This document shows positions 2,921-34,897 of a stretch of DNA of 64,000 nucleotides, one piece after another (positions within the stretch are counted from its first letter, which is position 1; each line of letters begins with the position of its first letter). The position numbers were made by a program, and so were the translations under genes. Source of the stretch: Alphaproteobacteria bacterium. GTDB taxonomy: Bacteria; Pseudomonadota; Alphaproteobacteria; GCA-2731375. The notes under the pieces were generated by a model. It saw only the letters and a list, made by a program, of their open reading frames with translations. It did no database searches and was not told where the DNA came from. The DNA lies in assembly GCA_965232515.1 (NCBI GenBank), contig CBDDPY010000002.1, positions 3,424,001 through 3,488,000 on the forward strand, written 5' to 3'.

Positions 2921-2954
2921 TAATTAAGATGATTTCGTTCTCTTGGAGAGATTT

Positions 2955-3848
2955 ATGGACCTGTCGGATCTGCGCATCTTCCGCGCCGTCGTCGAGGCCG
3001 GCGGCATCACCGCCGCCGCGCGCCAGCTGCATCGCGTGCAGTCGAACGTCACGACGCGGGTGCGACAGCTGGAAGAGAACCTGGGCGTCGAGCTGTTCAT
3101 CCGCGAGGGCAAGAAGCTGCATTTGTCACCGGCGGGTCAGGTGCTGCTCGATTATGCCGACCGGCTGCTGACGCTGGCCGAGGAGGCCCGCAACGCGGTG
3201 CAGGACCCGAGCCCGCGCGGCCTGTTTCGGCTGGGCGGCATGGAGAGCACGGCCGCGGTGCGGCTGCCGGGGCCGCTCAGCACCTATCACCAGCGCTATC
3301 CGGAGGTGGAGCTGGAATTCCGCGACAGCAACCCGGTGCAGCTCGCAACCTGGGTTTTGGCGGGCGAACTCGATGCCGCATTCGTGGCGGAGCCCGTCCC
3401 CGATGCACCGTTCGAGAAGGCGCATGCGTTCGATGAGGAACTGGTGATCGTCGCATCGGCGCAGCAACAGCCAATCGACGTGGCCGATGACACGCCGCAG
3501 ACGATCGTCGCCTTCGAAAACGGTTGTCCCTATCGCAAGCGGTTGGAGACCTGGTACGAGGGACGCGGCGATATGCCGGTGCGCACCATCGAGATCTCGT
3601 CCTATCACGTGATGCTCGGCTGCGTCGCCGCCGGCATGGGCATGTCGATGTTGCCGCGCAGCGTGCTGAGCGCCTTTCCCGGACGAGACCGTCTCAGCGT
3701 CCACGCGCTGCCGTCGGGGCAGGAACGCGCGGAAATCGTGCTGATCTGGCGCAAGGGCGCCAATTCGCCGAAGATCGCCGCCCTGCTCGATATCCTGAAA
3801 GAGAACCAGGGCGACGATAAATCCAGCCTGGCCGTGACGGCCGCGTGA
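2955..3848 (+). CDS. LysR-family transcriptional regulator (YneJ/PtrR-like)
   Basis: MDLSDLRIFRAVVEAGGITAAARQLHRVQSNVTTRVRQLEE HTH, GMESTAAVRLP, GCPYRKRLE. GGAG before ATG 2955. Confidence 0.93.
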   Translation: MDLSDLRIFRAVVEAGGITAAARQLHRVQSNVTTRVRQLEENLGVELFIREGKKLHLSPAGQVLLDYADRLLTLAEEARNAVQDPSPRGLFRLGGMESTAAVRLPGPLSTYHQRYPEVELEFRDSNPVQLATWVLAGELDAAFVAEPVPDAPFEKAHAFDEELVIVASAQQQPIDVADDTPQTIVAFENGCPYRKRLETWYEGRGDMPVRTIEISSYHVMLGCVAAGMGMSMLPRSVLSAFPGRDRLSVHALPSGQERAEIVLIWRKGANSPKIAALLDILKENQGDDKSSLAVTAA

Positions 3849-3849
3849 C

Positions 3850-4296
3850 TTAAGGCCGGTTGTCGTTCGACGTTTCGTAGACGGGTTCGGCCGACGCCGC
3901 GTCGCGCATGATGTCGGCAACCGTCGTGTAGGCGTCCGTCCAGGCCAATTCCGCTTCCGGTGTCCAGGCCGCGCCCAAGCCCTGCGCCAAGGTCCAAAGC
4001 AGCGCCTGGCCAACGGTGTCGTACTGCGCATCGGTGACGCCGTAGCCCACATGTCGGCGACCAAGGTCCTCGATCGCCGGCACCATCGACTCGAGGTCGT
4101 CCAGATTGTCGACGACGGCGCTGAGCGTCGCCATCAGCTTTTCGCGCTGCGCCGCCATGTCCGTGTCTTTGAACAGCGGCCGTGCGCTGGGATCGACTTC
4201 GAACAAGCGGTCATAAAACAGCCGGGCCGCCGTATCGGCGATCGGCGTCACCAGCGCCCAGGTCTCGCGCAGAATGCGTTTCTGCTCTGGCGTCAT
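3850..4296 (-). CDS. Single-domain globin, copy 2
   Basis: Same motifs as copy 1 (LFYDRLFEVDP, TDMAAQREKL, IEDLGRRHVGYGVT, VGQALLWTL). GGAG RBS. Confidence 0.92.
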   Translation of the reverse strand: MTPEQKRILRETWALVTPIADTAARLFYDRLFEVDPSARPLFKDTDMAAQREKLMATLSAVVDNLDDLESMVPAIEDLGRRHVGYGVTDAQYDTVGQALLWTLAQGLGAAWTPEAELAWTDAYTTVADIMRDAASAEPVYETSNDNRP

Positions 4297-7801: not shown

Positions 7802-7942
7802 ACGGTTAACCGAACGATCCGCTGACGTTTTGCAGGTCTGTCGCGTCGGCATGATCGTGATCGTCGCCCTGTAACTGACAAACTGGCAGACTGTTGGTTT
7901 GGAAATACATGCCTGCCAGCAGGGATCGTGGGGAGATCAGCG

Positions 7943-8791
7943 ATGTTCGAGGTCAATGCGGAGAAGAAATCGTTCACCACTTCGGACGGCGCGCGGCTCA
8001 GCTACCTGGAGGCGGGGTCGGGACAGCCTTTCGTCATGATCCCGGGCTGGTCGCAGACAGCCGAACAGTGGCATCACCAGGTCAATCACTTCTCGAACAC
8101 GCACCGGGTGCTGGCGCTGGACATGCGCGGGCATGGCGACAGCGACAAGCCCGACCACGGCTATCGCGTCTACCGGCTGGCGAAGGATGTGCGCGACGTC
8201 ATCGAGGGCCTTGACCTACACGATGTGGTGCTGATGGGGCATTCGATGGGCTGCTCGGTGATCTGGGCGCTCTACGACCTCTATGGCGCCGACCGGATCG
8301 CCAAGATCGTCTTCGTCGACGAGCCGCCCTCGCTCTCGGACAACCCGACGCTCGACGACCAGACGCGGCCGCAGGCGGGCGCCATCTTCACGCCCGAGGC
8401 CACGTTCGAGACCGCGATCGCGCTCGCGAACGATGCAAACGGCGAGGTCACGACCGGGTTCGTCACCGGCATGTTCACGCCGGACTGCCCGAAAGACATC
8501 GTCGAGGGCAGCATCGCGCTGAACCTGAAATTCCCGCGCGACAAGGCGGCGGCGCTGGTGGTCGACCATGTCCACAACGACTGGCGCGACGTGATGGGCC
8601 GGATCGCGGTGCCGGCGCTCTGCATCGGCGGCCGGATCAGCCTGGTGCCCTGGACGTCCGTGGTCTGGCAGGCCGAACAGATGCCTCACGGCGAGGTCGA
8701 GATCTTCGAAGCCGACGAAGGCGGCGCGCACTTCATGTTCATGGAGAACCCGGAAAAATTTGATGCCCGCGTCGCCGAATTTCTGGGCTGA
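7943..8791 (+). CDS. Alpha/beta hydrolase (non-haem haloperoxidase/esterase-like)
   Basis: IPGWSQ oxyanion loop, DMRGHGDS, GHSMG nucleophile elbow, GAHFMFMENPEKF. Confidence 0.9.
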   Translation: MFEVNAEKKSFTTSDGARLSYLEAGSGQPFVMIPGWSQTAEQWHHQVNHFSNTHRVLALDMRGHGDSDKPDHGYRVYRLAKDVRDVIEGLDLHDVVLMGHSMGCSVIWALYDLYGADRIAKIVFVDEPPSLSDNPTLDDQTRPQAGAIFTPEATFETAIALANDANGEVTTGFVTGMFTPDCPKDIVEGSIALNLKFPRDKAAALVVDHVHNDWRDVMGRIAVPALCIGGRISLVPWTSVVWQAEQMPHGEVEIFEADEGGAHFMFMENPEKFDARVAEFLG

Positions 8792-8951
8792 CGGCCACAG
8801 ATTTGTTGGCCAGCAAGCGGCCAGGCGCCCCTTGCCGGCCACGGCCTGAACCGATCTCAACCCGAATTAACGCATTTGGGCGCACATCCAATGCGATAAA
8901 TGCTCTAGACTGTTGCCATTGAGGGCTCAGCGATTGGCCAGGAGTCGGGCT

Positions 8952-9503
8952 ATGTTCGGGCTTGCGAACTACATAATGATCGCCCTCTTCGTCCTCGTCG
9001 CGGTTGGTCTGCCGACCCCTCCGGCTTGGGCGCAAGACGCCAAGCAATCCAAGCCATTGTTCAGCGTGGACGGATTTGACTACCAGTTCATCCCTCGCGG
9101 GCGAATACACATGAATGTCTGCCAGCAAACGAGCTGTGTTCCCGGGTCCCGGGTCAGCTACACGCTCTATGCGCCGGAACCCAATCCCAGCTTCGAGCAG
9201 TACAAACTTTCACAGGACCGAGTTGCAACACAACTCAGGGCCCGCGCGCCGCAGGGTACGAAGTTTGTATTTGGTACGCCGGAGCAAACGCGGGACGACG
9301 TCTTCACGACCTTCACCAACACAAGGGAGATTCACAATCCCAACGGCACCAAGATGTTCACGAAGTCAACATTGCTGCATGCCGAGGCAGCGACGATCTC
9401 TCTCGTGAGTTCGTCGGAAGATAAAGAAGCGGTCGAAACAAACCGCGCGCTGTTCATGCTCCAACTCATGATCTTGACCGAGCTTGCAAACAAGCAGAAT
9501 TAG
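8952..9503 (+). CDS. Hypothetical exported protein with atypical (lower-GC) composition
   Basis: AGGAG RBS, signal peptide ending AWA-QD, Cys pair VCQQTSC. No family recognised. Confidence 0.65.
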   Translation: MFGLANYIMIALFVLVAVGLPTPPAWAQDAKQSKPLFSVDGFDYQFIPRGRIHMNVCQQTSCVPGSRVSYTLYAPEPNPSFEQYKLSQDRVATQLRARAPQGTKFVFGTPEQTRDDVFTTFTNTREIHNPNGTKMFTKSTLLHAEAATISLVSSSEDKEAVETNRALFMLQLMILTELANKQN

Positions 9504-9527: not shown

Positions 9528-10313
9528 TCAATCCCTGTCCATGCCGCCGGACGCGTTGAGGCGTTCGGCGGTGATGTAGTCGGGGGCGTCGAGGGCGAGC
9601 CAGCAGACGGCGTCAGCCATCTCGTCCGGCGTCATGCGACGGCCGAGGGGGATGCGGGCAGTGCGCTCGGCCTTGAAGGCGTCGAGGTCGTCGCGGCCCT
9701 CGAGTTCGGCCATCAGGCGTTCGGTACGGTCCTGCAATTCGGTGTCCATCATGCCAGGGCCGATGCTGTTGACCTGGATGTTGTGTGGCGCGAGCGCGAC
9801 GGCGGCCGTGCGGGTGAGCGAATCCACCGCGGCCTTGCTGGCGGCATAGGCCGCGTAGGTCGGGAGCGCCATGCGCGAGGCCGCCGAGGTGACGTTGACG
9901 ATGCGGCCCCTGCCCTGCGCCCGCATCTGCGCGCCGGCCGCGGCGATCGCCAGCGCCACGCCCCGCACGTTGACGAGCAGGCTGCGCTCCCAGGCGGCCG
10001 GCGTCATCTCGAGAAACGCCTCGATCGTGGCGTAAGCCGCTGCGTTGACCAGCACGTCGAGCCGGCCAAATTGCGCCACGGTCGCCGTGACCATGGCCGC
10101 CGGTCCATCGGCGGAACCGAGATCGTAGGTCAGCGCCTGTGCGTCCGTGGCGGCCGAGCGGCAGCGCGCGGCGACCGACTGGGCGCCATCCGAATCCACG
10201 TCCGCGATGGCGATGTTCAGCCCGCGCGCCGCCAGCGCGACGGCGACCGCCGCGCCGAAGCCGTTGGCGCCGCCCGTGACGAGCGCCGTTTGTTTTGTCG
10301 CCTGATCGGTCAT
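9528..10313 (-). CDS. SDR-family oxidoreductase
   Basis: TGGANGFG, LVNAA, YAASK, VNSIGPG. GGAGG RBS before ATG 10313. Confidence 0.9.
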   Translation of the reverse strand: MTDQATKQTALVTGGANGFGAAVAVALAARGLNIAIADVDSDGAQSVAARCRSAATDAQALTYDLGSADGPAAMVTATVAQFGRLDVLVNAAAYATIEAFLEMTPAAWERSLLVNVRGVALAIAAAGAQMRAQGRGRIVNVTSAASRMALPTYAAYAASKAAVDSLTRTAAVALAPHNIQVNSIGPGMMDTELQDRTERLMAELEGRDDLDAFKAERTARIPLGRRMTPDEMADAVCWLALDAPDYITAERLNASGGMDRD

Positions 10314-10446
10314 GGCTTCCTCCGCTGCCGACTGCTGTCGCACAAGAGGATGTTACTTGGTCGACGGCGTTCGCGCCGCCTAGGCTGACAGACGTCAAGT
10401 CCAGTGGCGTTTATCGGAAAACAAGAAGACAGCGGAGGACGTCATC

Positions 10447-11211
10447 ATGACCGCACCTGTACGCCTTTTGCACCACCCGACATCACAGCCCTGTCGGGCC
10501 GTGCATCAGTTCCTGCTGGAGGTTGGCATTCCGTTCGAGCAGGAGGTCGTCAACATCCTGGACGGCAGCAACGAGGCGCAAGACTTCAAGGACAACTACA
10601 ACCCGACGGGGCAGATCCCGATCCTCTGCGACGGCGACTTCGTCGTCTGGGAGAGCGCGGCGATCGCCTTCTACCTGAACGAAAAATACGACGCGCCGGC
10701 GCATTGGTTCGGCGCCACGATGCAACAGCGCGCCCTGATCCAGCAGTATCTGCACTGGCATTCGACGTCGCTCCGCCGCGGCGCCGGGGCGTTTTTCTAT
10801 TCGCACTTCGCGGAATGCATCTGGGGCAAGCACGACTATTCCCGGGAGATCGAGAAAGGCCGGCACGTACTCTACGAGTCGATGGGAATCCTGGACCGCT
10901 GGCTTGGCCACAGCAACTACGTCTGCGGCGACGAGATCAGCTTCGCCGACCTGCAAGGCTATCATGAGTTCGTGTCGCACGCGGCCGGCGAAATCATTCC
11001 CGAGGCGGAATGGCGCAAGCATCCCAACATCAAACGCTGGTTCGACGCCATCTCCGAACGCCCGCATTCGGCTGTTGTTAGCGAGATGATCATGGAGGTC
11101 GGCCGGATGCGGCTTGCGGGCGAGCTCATTCCCATGACGCGCAAGACGTCTCTCGCGAAGGGGACGGAGATTGCCGGCAGCGGGACGACCGGAATCCCGT
11201 ATCTGAACTAG
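10447..11211 (+). CDS. Theta-class glutathione S-transferase, dichloromethane dehalogenase (DcmA)-like
   Basis: HPTSQPCR (catalytic Ser), YNPTGQIPIL, VWESAAIA, YVCGDEISFADL, HEFVSH.AG.IIP, RKT...KGTE, C-terminal GIPYLN. These match the DcmA sequence as I recall it. GGAGG RBS. Confidence 0.85.
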   Translation: MTAPVRLLHHPTSQPCRAVHQFLLEVGIPFEQEVVNILDGSNEAQDFKDNYNPTGQIPILCDGDFVVWESAAIAFYLNEKYDAPAHWFGATMQQRALIQQYLHWHSTSLRRGAGAFFYSHFAECIWGKHDYSREIEKGRHVLYESMGILDRWLGHSNYVCGDEISFADLQGYHEFVSHAAGEIIPEAEWRKHPNIKRWFDAISERPHSAVVSEMIMEVGRMRLAGELIPMTRKTSLAKGTEIAGSGTTGIPYLN

Positions 11212-11319
11212 CGTCTGCCCGAACATTTGCGTTTGTCGCGCCGGCATCGATTTGCCGGACGTCGCGCCATGCGGGATTATAGGCAGGCGATAAAGCAGCC
11301 AAACGGGGGCAAAGCGGCG

Positions 11320-12297
11320 ATGAAACGCAAACACGCGAGCGGCAACGCCGGCAGGCGATCGAAATCGGACCAGCAAATCGCCATTGCGGCCTACGAACAT
11401 CGCCGTGGCGAGGGCAAAGGCGACCAACGGTTTCCGTCGGATCGGGAGATCTCGCTGGATGCCTATGAGCAGCGGCACAGCGAGGCGTCGCGGCCGAAGC
11501 CGGCGCGGCTGAAGGGTAAGATCTATAAGCGCGAACTGACGCGTCTGCAGATCGAGCTGGTGAAGCTGCAGGAATGGATCAAAGACCAGGGTCTGAAGGT
11601 GGTCGTGGTCTTCGAGGGCCGCGACGCGGCCGGCAAGGGCGGCACGATCAAGCGCATCCTGCAGAGCCTGAACCCGCGCATCTGCGACGTGGTGGCCCTG
11701 GGCACGCCGACCGACCGCGAAAAGACGCAATGGTACTTCCAGCGCTATGTGGCGCATCTGCCGGCGGCGGGCCAGATGGTGCTGTTCGACCGCTCCTGGT
11801 ACAACCGCGCCGGCGTCGAGCGCGTCATGGGTTTCTGCACCGAGGAGGAGTATCGCGACTTCCTGCGCTCGGCGCCGGAGTTCGAGCGCATGCTGGTGCG
11901 CTCGGGCATTGTCCTGATCAAATACTGGTTCTCGGTCAGCGACGAAGAGCAGGAACGCCGCTTCAGCGACCGCATCAAAACGCCGACCAAACGCTGGAAG
12001 CTGAGCCCCATGGACCTGGAGTCGCGCAAACGCTGGGTCGAGTATTCGAAGGCCAAGGACGAGATGTTCCAGCACACCGATATCAAGCAGGCGCCCTGGT
12101 ATGTGGTCGAATCCGACGACAAACGGCGGGCGCGGCTGAACTGTATCCGTCACCTGTTGAGCGTCATTCCCTATAAGGATCTGACGCCGGAGCCGGTCAA
12201 GCTGCCGCGGCGGCAACGGGCCGGCGGCTACGTGCGGCCGCCGATGAGCGAGCAGACCATCATCCCCGACCACTATCCGGCGGACGGCGGCCGATGA
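11320..12297 (+). CDS. ppk2: Polyphosphate kinase 2 (class I)
   Basis: FEGRDAAGKGG Walker A, QWYFQRY, FDRSWYNRAGVERVMGF, KRWKLSPMD. Exact start uncertain. Confidence 0.95.
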   Translation: MKRKHASGNAGRRSKSDQQIAIAAYEHRRGEGKGDQRFPSDREISLDAYEQRHSEASRPKPARLKGKIYKRELTRLQIELVKLQEWIKDQGLKVVVVFEGRDAAGKGGTIKRILQSLNPRICDVVALGTPTDREKTQWYFQRYVAHLPAAGQMVLFDRSWYNRAGVERVMGFCTEEEYRDFLRSAPEFERMLVRSGIVLIKYWFSVSDEEQERRFSDRIKTPTKRWKLSPMDLESRKRWVEYSKAKDEMFQHTDIKQAPWYVVESDDKRRARLNCIRHLLSVIPYKDLTPEPVKLPRRQRAGGYVRPPMSEQTIIPDHYPADGGR

Positions 12298-33877: not shown

Positions 33878-34897
33878 ATGCCCGCCAAACACCCCGCTTT
33901 CAAGGTCGCCGCCGTGCAGGCGGCGCCGGTGTTTCTCGATCTCGAGGCCACGGTCGACAAGGCCGTCGGGCTGATCGAGGAAGCCGGCGGCAACGGCGCC
34001 AAGCTGATCGCCTTTCCCGAGACCTGGATTCCCGGCTATCCCTGGTGGATCTGGCTGGGCGCACCGGCCTGGGGCATGCAGTTCGTGCAGCGCTATCACG
34101 ACAACGCGCTGGTCCTGGGCAGCGCGGAGGACCTGCGCATTCGCGAGGCGGCGCGGAAGGCCGGCCTGCATGTGGTGCTGGGCTACAGCGAGAAGGACGG
34201 CGGCAGCCTCTATATGGGCCAGTCCCTGATCGATGCCGACGGCGAGGTGATCGCCACGCGCCGCAAGCTGAAGCCGACGCATGTCGAGCGCACGGTGTTC
34301 GGCGAGGGCGACGGCAGCGACCTCGCGGTCTACGAGACCGGCATCGGCCGGCTGGGCGCGCTCTGCTGTTGGGAGCATCTGCAGCCGCTGACGAAATACG
34401 CCATGTTCTCCATGCACGAGCAGGTGCACGTGGCGTCCTGGCCGAGCTTCAGCCTCTATCGCGGCATGGCCTATGCGCTGGGCCCCGAGCTGAACAACGC
34501 GGCGAGCCAGATGTATGCCGCCGAGGGCCAATGCTTCGTGCTGGCGCCGTGCGCCACGGTGTCGCCGGAGATGATCGAGATGCTGGCCGACACCGACGAC
34601 AAGAAGGCCATGCTGAAGCCCGGCGGCGGATTCGCCATGATCTACGGTCCCGACGGCAGCCCGCTGAACGAACGCCTGCCGGAAGACCAGGAAGGCCTGA
34701 TCTATGCCGATATCGATTTGGGCATGATCTCGCTGGCGAAATCGGCGGCCGATCCGGTGGGGCATTATTCGCGGCCCGACGTGACCCGCCTGATGCTGAA
34801 CACGACGCCGGCCTCGCGAGTCGAGCGCATGGCGACGCCGATCCAGGACGTCGAGCCCAGCCACGCGGATGCCGAGCCGGCCGCCAGCGAGAGCTGA
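33878..34897 (+). CDS. Nitrilase (branch 1, arylacetonitrilase/aliphatic type)
   Basis: Catalytic triad motifs [27 protein letters not shown]; [11 protein letters not shown]. Confidence 0.93.

Follow-up and report, generated by a model that had tools for sequence, protein, structure and literature searches.

A DcmA-like theta-type glutathione S-transferase from an alphaproteobacterial chromosome belongs to a conserved subfamily beside dichloromethane dehalogenase

Introduction

How is a glutathione S-transferase (GST) gene that carries sequence blocks of dichloromethane dehalogenase (DcmA), in a chromosomal setting with no dcm genes around it, related to the authentic enzyme, and what might its product do? 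This question is raised by positions 10447–11211 of the window, which is the whole 64-kb stretch of DNA analysed here. Passages of a 2020 paper (PMC7760279) present DcmA as the only dichloromethane (DCM)-degrading system characterised at the sequence level and its family as less uniform than formerly believed, and the DcmA reaction is stated in part of PMC5585157. Sections of three papers (PMC7760279, PMC5585157, PMC8262859) describe the enzyme as conserved, tied to dcmRABC and usually flanked by transposases, and one Binatota genome with dcmA is reported among them. A preliminary description of the locus proposed that it holds a chromosomally resident sister lineage of DcmA.

Results

The gene (10447..11211, + strand) encodes a 254-aa DcmA-like theta-type GST, assigned by its open reading frame, Pfam domains and identity to DcmA to a group designated clade B. 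A Shine-Dalgarno sequence, GGAGGA (10434..10439, +), was read off the sequence 7 nt 5' of the ATG, and the N-terminus agrees with those of homologues (alignments A1 and A2). Pfam GST_N (44 bits) and GST_C (35.5 bits) domains both scored above their cut-offs, and every motif block listed in the preliminary description was present in the translation. The host-like codon usage reported there was also borne out, with a GC3 of 0.83 against a range of 0.72–0.93 across the 53 open reading frames (ORFs) called in the window. A promoter scan found no sigma-70-like promoter for the gene, and its three terminator-like matches were near the expectation from shuffled sequence. An ESM Atlas search with the protein returned only generic GST and theta-type clusters.

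As had been described, the gene lies between a divergent, upstream SDR-family oxidoreductase (9528..10343, −; Pfam adh_short_C2, E 6e-52) and a polyphosphate kinase 2 (PPK2) gene 16 bp downstream (11227..12297, +; Pfam PPK2, E 1.7e-108), after which a rhodanese and a periplasmic binding protein follow on the same strand. The reported lack of dcmR and insertion sequences also held, as none of the 53 ORFs encoded a MEDS/DcmR, DcmB-like, transposase or integrase domain, nor were class III alcohol dehydrogenase or esterase D found among them. When the 64 kb were searched by tblastn, the DcmR, DcmB and DcmC of strain GJ21 gave no match at E<=1e-3, and the AdhC and MEDS regulator of locus L012, the FghA of L010 and the AhpD-related protein of L022 (loci of relatives, described below) likewise gave none, while a DcmA control matched the GST gene alone. 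The search for dcmR and formaldehyde-oxidation genes that had been proposed for the genome thus returned, by domains and tblastn within the window, no dcmR, adhC or fghA, and the usual company of DcmA (dcmR, dcmB, dcmC and transposases) is missing there. The window GST gene stands alone on the chromosome: it has a ribosome-binding site of its own, and no dedicated regulator lies close by.

Several other genes of the window were recorded. Two globin-domain genes (2149–2589, −, and 3850–4296, −) flank a LysR-type regulator (2943–3848, +). Two genes upstream of the GST lies an alpha/beta hydrolase (7928–8791, +) with sub-threshold NCBIfam matches to haloalkane dehalogenase (68.6 bits versus a cut-off of 241) and 3-oxoadipate enol-lactonase (77.7 versus 256); it is probably a generic hydrolase, not conserved beside clade B genes. 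A carbon-nitrogen hydrolase of the nitrilase family (33878–34897, +) is located 23 kb from the GST. Genes of this family likewise occur near some DcmA-like loci (e.g., L010, L062 and L065), and one near dcmRABC is noted in passages of PMC7760279; given its distance, the presence of the window gene is probably a coincidence.

In BLASTP comparisons, the window protein was 52% identical to the DcmA of Methylorubrum extorquens DM4 (P0355, UniRef P21161; 134/258 identities, E 5e-96) in an alignment running end to end (residues 5–254 against 14–270), and 48% identical over its full length to the DcmA of Methylophilus leisingeri DM11 (P43387), the two authentic enzymes being 59% identical to each other. 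The DcmA blocks named in the preliminary description, including KGTE and GIPYLN, were indeed common to the window protein and DM4 DcmA. Both DM4 and DM11 DcmA resemble it in HHPxSQPCR, YNPTGQ-PIL, HEFVSH-AG and R-x-T-x-x-x-KG-x-E ... GIPY. The differences were also as described there: GAFFY stands in place of GAFHW, within a segment that reads HWHSTxLRRGAGAFFY in clade B and QWYAYTLRLGGGAFHW in DcmA, and the window protein ends directly after GIPYLN, with no tail, whereas DM4 DcmA continues for 18 residues.

An exhaustive search against representatives of 50%-identity clusters returned only 18 at E<1e-30, a level at which chance is excluded. The best full-length representative (P0121, 268 aa) was 54% identical to the window protein and agrees with DcmA peptides of Hyphomicrobium MC8b published in Table 1 of PMC7760279, the part of that paper used for the comparison. 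Beyond the family members and their fragments, full-length matches continued with theta-type GSTs such as an amoeba protein and hare GSTT1, so that identity falls from 54% to at most 41% outside the DcmA-like group. No DcmA was among the names of the top representatives; the authentic DcmAs were recovered by a second search seeded with P0121. This search yielded the DM11 enzyme (P0340) and a single cluster holding the DcmAs of M. extorquens DM4 (P0355), H. denitrificans ATCC 51888 (P0357), Hyphomicrobium MC8b (P0362) and Ancylobacter dichloromethanicus (P0356).

A maximum-likelihood tree (IQ-TREE, LG+C20) was built from 79 rows hand-picked from ~390 proteins, with fragments and most near-duplicates excluded, comprising 29 clade B sequences, 27 unnamed sequences from the DcmA side, 5 authentic DcmAs and 18 theta-like outgroups. 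The DcmA-like proteins were monophyletic relative to the 18 outgroups (support 100/100). Within them, all five authentic DcmAs and 24 unnamed rows formed clade A (100/100); the window protein fell outside it, beyond the clade of DM4-type and DM11-type enzymes, and in clade B (28 rows, 99/95). Four intermediates (P0071, P0343, P0344 and P0345) grouped weakly with clade B (82/45), and the root of the 79-row tree is insecure, with long outgroup branches. The window protein is a member of the DcmA-like GST group, which unites the DcmA clade and clade B, by this monophyly, by its end-to-end alignment with DcmA and by its C-terminal motif. The proposed sister lineage of DcmA therefore stands in that the protein does not group with generic GSTs and lies outside the DcmA clade, as a sister or a basal paraphyletic lineage; since the non-DcmA side is weakly supported as monophyletic (82/45), 'sister' could mean 'ancestral grade'. 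Taken together, these comparisons place clade B as a distinct and highly conserved subfamily that is, by sequence, the nearest relative of DcmA.

Residues separating the two clades were identified from 118 clade B and 50 clade A sequences, for which mean identity was 71% among clade B sequences, 68% among those of clade A and 51% from one clade to the other. Fourteen positions differed in near-fixed fashion (48, 105, 111, 113, 117, 118, 126, 131, 166, 215, 230, 235, 236 and 237), six of them on helix 4, where the W104–W126 codons (10756..10824, +) form the segment most divergent from DcmA. At positions 105, 111, 113, 117, 118 and 126, clade B carries H, R, A, F, Y and W (at least 97% fixed), the states also found in the window protein, and clade A carries Y, L, G, H, W and Y (at least 98% fixed). 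Since H105, R/K111, A113, F117 and Y118 are common to clade B, the four intermediates and some theta-like outgroups, this distribution suggests that the Y, L, G, H, W set of DcmA is derived.

These residues, together with the tree, bear on whether the gene could be a true DcmA orthologue that enables its host to grow on DCM. The 52% full-length identity to DM4 DcmA is in keeping with such an orthologue, as is the name 'dichloromethane dehalogenase' given to the clade B member P0073, although this name is an unreviewed annotation of a metagenome-assembled genome (MAG). However, the window protein lies outside the fully supported clade of all authentic DcmAs and lacks both their fixed helix 4 residues and their C-terminal tail, and dcmR, dcmB and dcmC are absent from the window, which makes orthology very improbable.

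Among the best 60 of 167 PDB matches, the closest solved structures by sequence were human GSTT2 (E 1e-27) and GSTT1 (E 2.5e-24), and an AlphaFold model computed from alignment A2 (pLDDT 91, pTM 0.88) had the same two proteins as its nearest folds (TM 0.80 and 0.75, respectively), with 26–29% identity over the structural alignments. With GST_N and GST_C domains, theta structures ranking first by both sequence and fold, and an aligned serine, the protein has the fold of a theta-class (serine-type) GST. No DcmA structure was present among these best 60 of 167 sequence matches or among the top fold matches.

The presumed catalytic residue, Ser13, lies in the HHPTSQPCR motif (H9–R17; codons 10471..10497, +), in which H10, P11, S13, Q14, P15, C16 and R17 were invariant across 33 sequences from both clades (alignment A2). 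It aligns with Ser11 of human GSTT2 (1ljr numbering), and R110, which is kept in both clades, aligns with Arg107 of that enzyme; Ser11 and Arg107 have catalytic roles in human GSTT2. Ser13 also aligns with the residue numbered Ser12 in DM11 DcmA, reportedly required in that enzyme, to go by the title of a 1996 paper by Vuilleumier and Leisinger, so that the catalytic serine of DcmA has an invariant counterpart in the window protein (n=33). Altogether, 54 positions reached at least 97% conservation in each of the two clades, among them the HHPxSQPCR motif with S13 and Q14, P58, E69, R110 and the C-terminal motif.

This C-terminal motif, common to DcmA and the window protein, is RKTSLAKGTE (R232–E241; codons 11140..11169, + strand). 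In the form R-x-T-x-x-x-K-G-x-E, its residues R232, T234, K238, G239 and E241 showed no variation in alignment A2 and were conserved to at least 97% in either clade, and theta-like outgroups either stop short of the motif or fail to align with it. Model confidence decreases towards this end, with a mean pLDDT per 10-residue block of 94 (221–230), 76 (231–240) and 50 (241–250). Mammalian theta GSTs (human GSTT2-2, 1LJR/4MPG, and GSTT1-1, 2C3N) thus align with the window protein at the serine and the helix 4 arginine, and have several helix 4 residues in common with clade B, but lack its KGTE...GIPY motif.

Conservation of the active site also speaks to the idea of a non-catalytic GST-fold protein, for instance an FzlA-like FtsZ-binding or regulatory one. 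The best match in NCBIfam, a collection without any DcmA model, was to FzlA, an FtsZ-binding GST-like protein (NF050814). This match is in line with a non-catalytic role, but at 62.7 bits it falls far below the curated cut-off of 300, and FzlA identity was rejected. With the catalytic serine and glutathione-site residues invariant as well, a non-catalytic protein is the least credible of the explanations considered here.

A first database search with the window protein gave 220 matches, of which the best 120 of 220 were 66–80% identical and 246–275 aa long and, save for the MAG entry P0073, carried generic names. Clustering at 90% identity divides clade B into at least 120 groups, its uncharacterised 'glutathione S-transferase family protein' entries being 63–80% identical to the window protein and mostly 248–256 aa long. 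A scan of one genome per species across 185,579 species, with YNPTGQVP and HHP[ATS]SQPCR as peptide patterns, found 85 relatives, of which 80 were kept: 32 loci of clade B type (63–80% identical to the query, the nearest two at 80% and 79%) and 48 of clade A type (47–57%). The genome from which the window derives was not among these matches. DcmA had been called narrowly distributed, a view that is not upheld, given that its own clade accounts for 48 of the 80 loci. These clade A loci (L032–L077, L079 and L080) come mostly from MAGs of Binatia, Rhodospirillales, Hyphomicrobiales and others, far beyond the few cultured DCM degraders.

According to genome records, hosts of clade B genes include Alpha- and Gammaproteobacteria, Myxococcota (Sandaracinaceae), Verrucomicrobiae, Planctomycetota, SAR324 and the cyanobacterium Vacuolonema iberomarrocanum. 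Only a few of the hosts are in culture (Roseovarius nitratireducens, R. ramblicola, Albidovulum sediminis and Vacuolonema). Horizontal spread of clade B is suggested by its high identity in different phyla, and the GST gene is no oddity of its genome but a member of a large, conserved and generically annotated family. Two clade B genes (L022:7184–7948 and L031:1059–1823) contain one in-frame stop each at an otherwise invariant position (Ser177 and Tyr51, respectively). The L022 gene is the second copy in its MAG, besides that of L007, and also strays from the HHP/C16 motif. Both stop-bearing genes are pseudogenes or assembly errors.

Neighbouring genes were counted by tblastn (E<=1e-20, at least 50% coverage) at the 32 clade B and 48 clade A loci, with flanks of at least 3 kb on both sides in 21 of the 32 clade B loci. 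In the authentic arrangement, seen at L068 and L070, a divergent dcmR (MEDS+HTH) is found with dcmA, dcmB (354 aa, NCBIfam CmcJ/NvfI family) and dcmC. DcmB-like neighbours were found at 21 clade A loci and DcmR-like ones at 18, pointing to dcm-type clusters in many uncultured bacteria; DcmC-like proteins occurred at 4. Clade B gave a different picture, with no DcmB-like or DcmC-like neighbour at any of its 32 loci and DcmR-like ones, of MEDS+HTH architecture, at 3 (in addition to an ORF fragment at L011). Conversely, S-(hydroxymethyl)glutathione dehydrogenase (AdhC) adjoined the GST at four clade B loci (L010, L011, L012 and L015) and the esterase FghA at one (L010), versus none of the 48 clade A loci in either case. 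The four AdhC proteins scored 567–639 bits against the TIGR02818 cut-off of 544, and the L010 FghA scored 408 bits against 282 for TIGR02821. Gene order was adhC, fghA, GST on one strand at L010, MEDS regulator, adhC, GST at L015, and MEDS regulator, GST, adhC at L011 and L012, and the GSTs of these adhC/MEDS-linked loci were 62–85% identical to one another. At the remaining 27 of the 32 clade B loci, the available flanks held neither adhC nor a DcmR-type gene, and the neighbours were unrelated. The window copy, too, adjoins none of the adhC, fghA, DcmR-type or AhpD-related selenoprotein genes seen beside some of its relatives.

The two genes that adjoin the window GST were also considered as conserved partners and rejected. 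PPK2 was absent from the 112 nearest neighbours of the 32 clade B loci, and SDR genes came from only seven clade B sources including the window, at varying positions and in a generic cluster.

The AhpD-related 'CFYUT' (seleno)protein (NCBIfam NF041238) directly adjoins DcmA-like GSTs of both clades, at 4 of the 32 clade B loci (L022, at 7990–9081, +; L005; L026; L031) and 9 of the 48 clade A loci (L032, L033, L038, L044, L048, L051, L054, L057 and L073). At L022, the frame of this (seleno)protein continues through an in-frame TGA at residue 241, within the CFYUT motif. It is possible that this protein is a conserved redox partner of the DcmA-like GST group. Separately, dcmB (L068:8931–9992; clade A cluster 5, e.g., L052:8827–9921) matches the NCBIfam CmcJ/NvfI family oxidoreductase model, the L052 homologue with 222 bits versus a cut-off of 80; the function of DcmB is given as unknown in part of PMC5585157.

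Discussion

We propose that the window gene probably encodes a cytosolic, serine-type, theta-fold GST of clade B that acts on dihalomethane-like electrophiles. The homology to DcmA, the clade placement, the fold and the conserved Ser13 and glutathione-site motifs are observed features of the protein; the dihalomethane chemistry is suggested by its relatives and their neighbourhoods. Dihalomethanes are converted by both DcmA and mammalian GSTT1, and so relatives on both sides of clade B perform such chemistry. AdhC and FghA, which adjoin some clade B relatives, are consumers of exactly S-(hydroxymethyl)glutathione, and DcmR-type regulators adjoin others. In the proposed mechanism, Ser13 would stabilise the glutathione thiolate, which would attack a small one-carbon electrophile, most probably a dihalomethane, and displace a halide. 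Hydrolysis of the S-halomethylglutathione so formed would give S-(hydroxymethyl)glutathione, from which formaldehyde may be released, or which may be oxidised via the glutathione-dependent formaldehyde pathway. Counting against a dihalomethane role, the window is without adhC, fghA, MEDS/DcmR, dcmB and dcmC, and 27 of the 32 clade B loci are without adhC or DcmR-type neighbours. The near-fixed changes relative to DcmA at fourteen positions, six on helix 4, could also reflect a different substrate. A literature search covering few subscription journals found neither a description of clade B nor an assayed clade B enzyme, and the cited sections of PMC7760279, PMC5585157 and PMC8262859 make no mention of the clade.

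The same neighbourhoods can be read in a second way, in which clade B enzymes work in the formaldehyde direction, making or handling S-(hydroxymethyl)glutathione or another glutathione C1 adduct in a Gfa-like manner, with no dehalogenation. Such an activity would fit the adhC genes beside 4 of the 32 clade B loci and the pairing of adhC with fghA at L010. The nearest characterised relatives are dehalogenating transferases, however, and DcmR-type regulators co-occur as well, so we consider this improbable; formaldehyde activation by a protein of GST fold has no precedent known to us.

A third reading deserves more weight, though we regard it as rather unlikely: the protein would be a theta-like GST that detoxifies a broad range of electrophiles, such as alkyl halides, epoxides or peroxides, without any particular tie to one-carbon halides, and its similarity to DcmA would reflect ancestry only. 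It would account for helix 4 residues that match those of theta-like outgroups at several of the 14 discriminating positions, for neighbourhoods that differ from one clade B locus to another (n=32), and for a window context (SDR, PPK2, rhodanese) that is uninformative. By contrast, a mean identity of ~71% (n=118) across many phyla argues for a specific and strongly constrained function, and the recurrent adhC, fghA and DcmR-type neighbours argue for a reaction that yields formaldehyde.

Under the favoured assignment to dihalomethane-like electrophiles, the theta-like pocket residues and the fact that dcmB is never linked to clade B genes point to a detoxifying or natural-substrate enzyme. The protein is thus expected, from these sequence features, to be a general or natural-dihalomethane detoxifier rather than a high-flux, growth-supporting DCM dehalogenase. 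A wider proposal can be put forward tentatively. Clade B may be the natural family of dihalomethane dehalogenases, of ancestral type, which gene transfer would have carried into many phyla and mostly into uncultured bacteria. Its members would convert biogenic CH2Br2, CH2I2, CH2ClI and CH2Cl2 to S-(hydroxymethyl)glutathione, to be passed directly to AdhC and FghA. On this view, DcmA would have branched off recently as a specialist, having acquired a few changes on helix 4, DcmB and a C-terminal tail that suit it to high-flux growth on industrial DCM.

Since the window gene is an ordinary chromosomal resident, its interest lies in the family rather than in the locus. Clade B is a sister family of DcmA, conserved at ~71% over several phyla and without an assigned function, and the window GST may show what the pollutant-degrading enzyme evolved from. 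Comparison of clade B with DcmA provides a concrete list of substitutions that may have made an efficient DCM dehalogenase, and the linkage to glutathione-dependent formaldehyde oxidation in some relatives offers a testable physiological role. If the proposal of an ancestral dihalomethane dehalogenase family is true, natural dihalomethanes would have a microbial sink that has gone unrecognised, and each residue change on the evolutionary way to DCM degradation could be named and tested.
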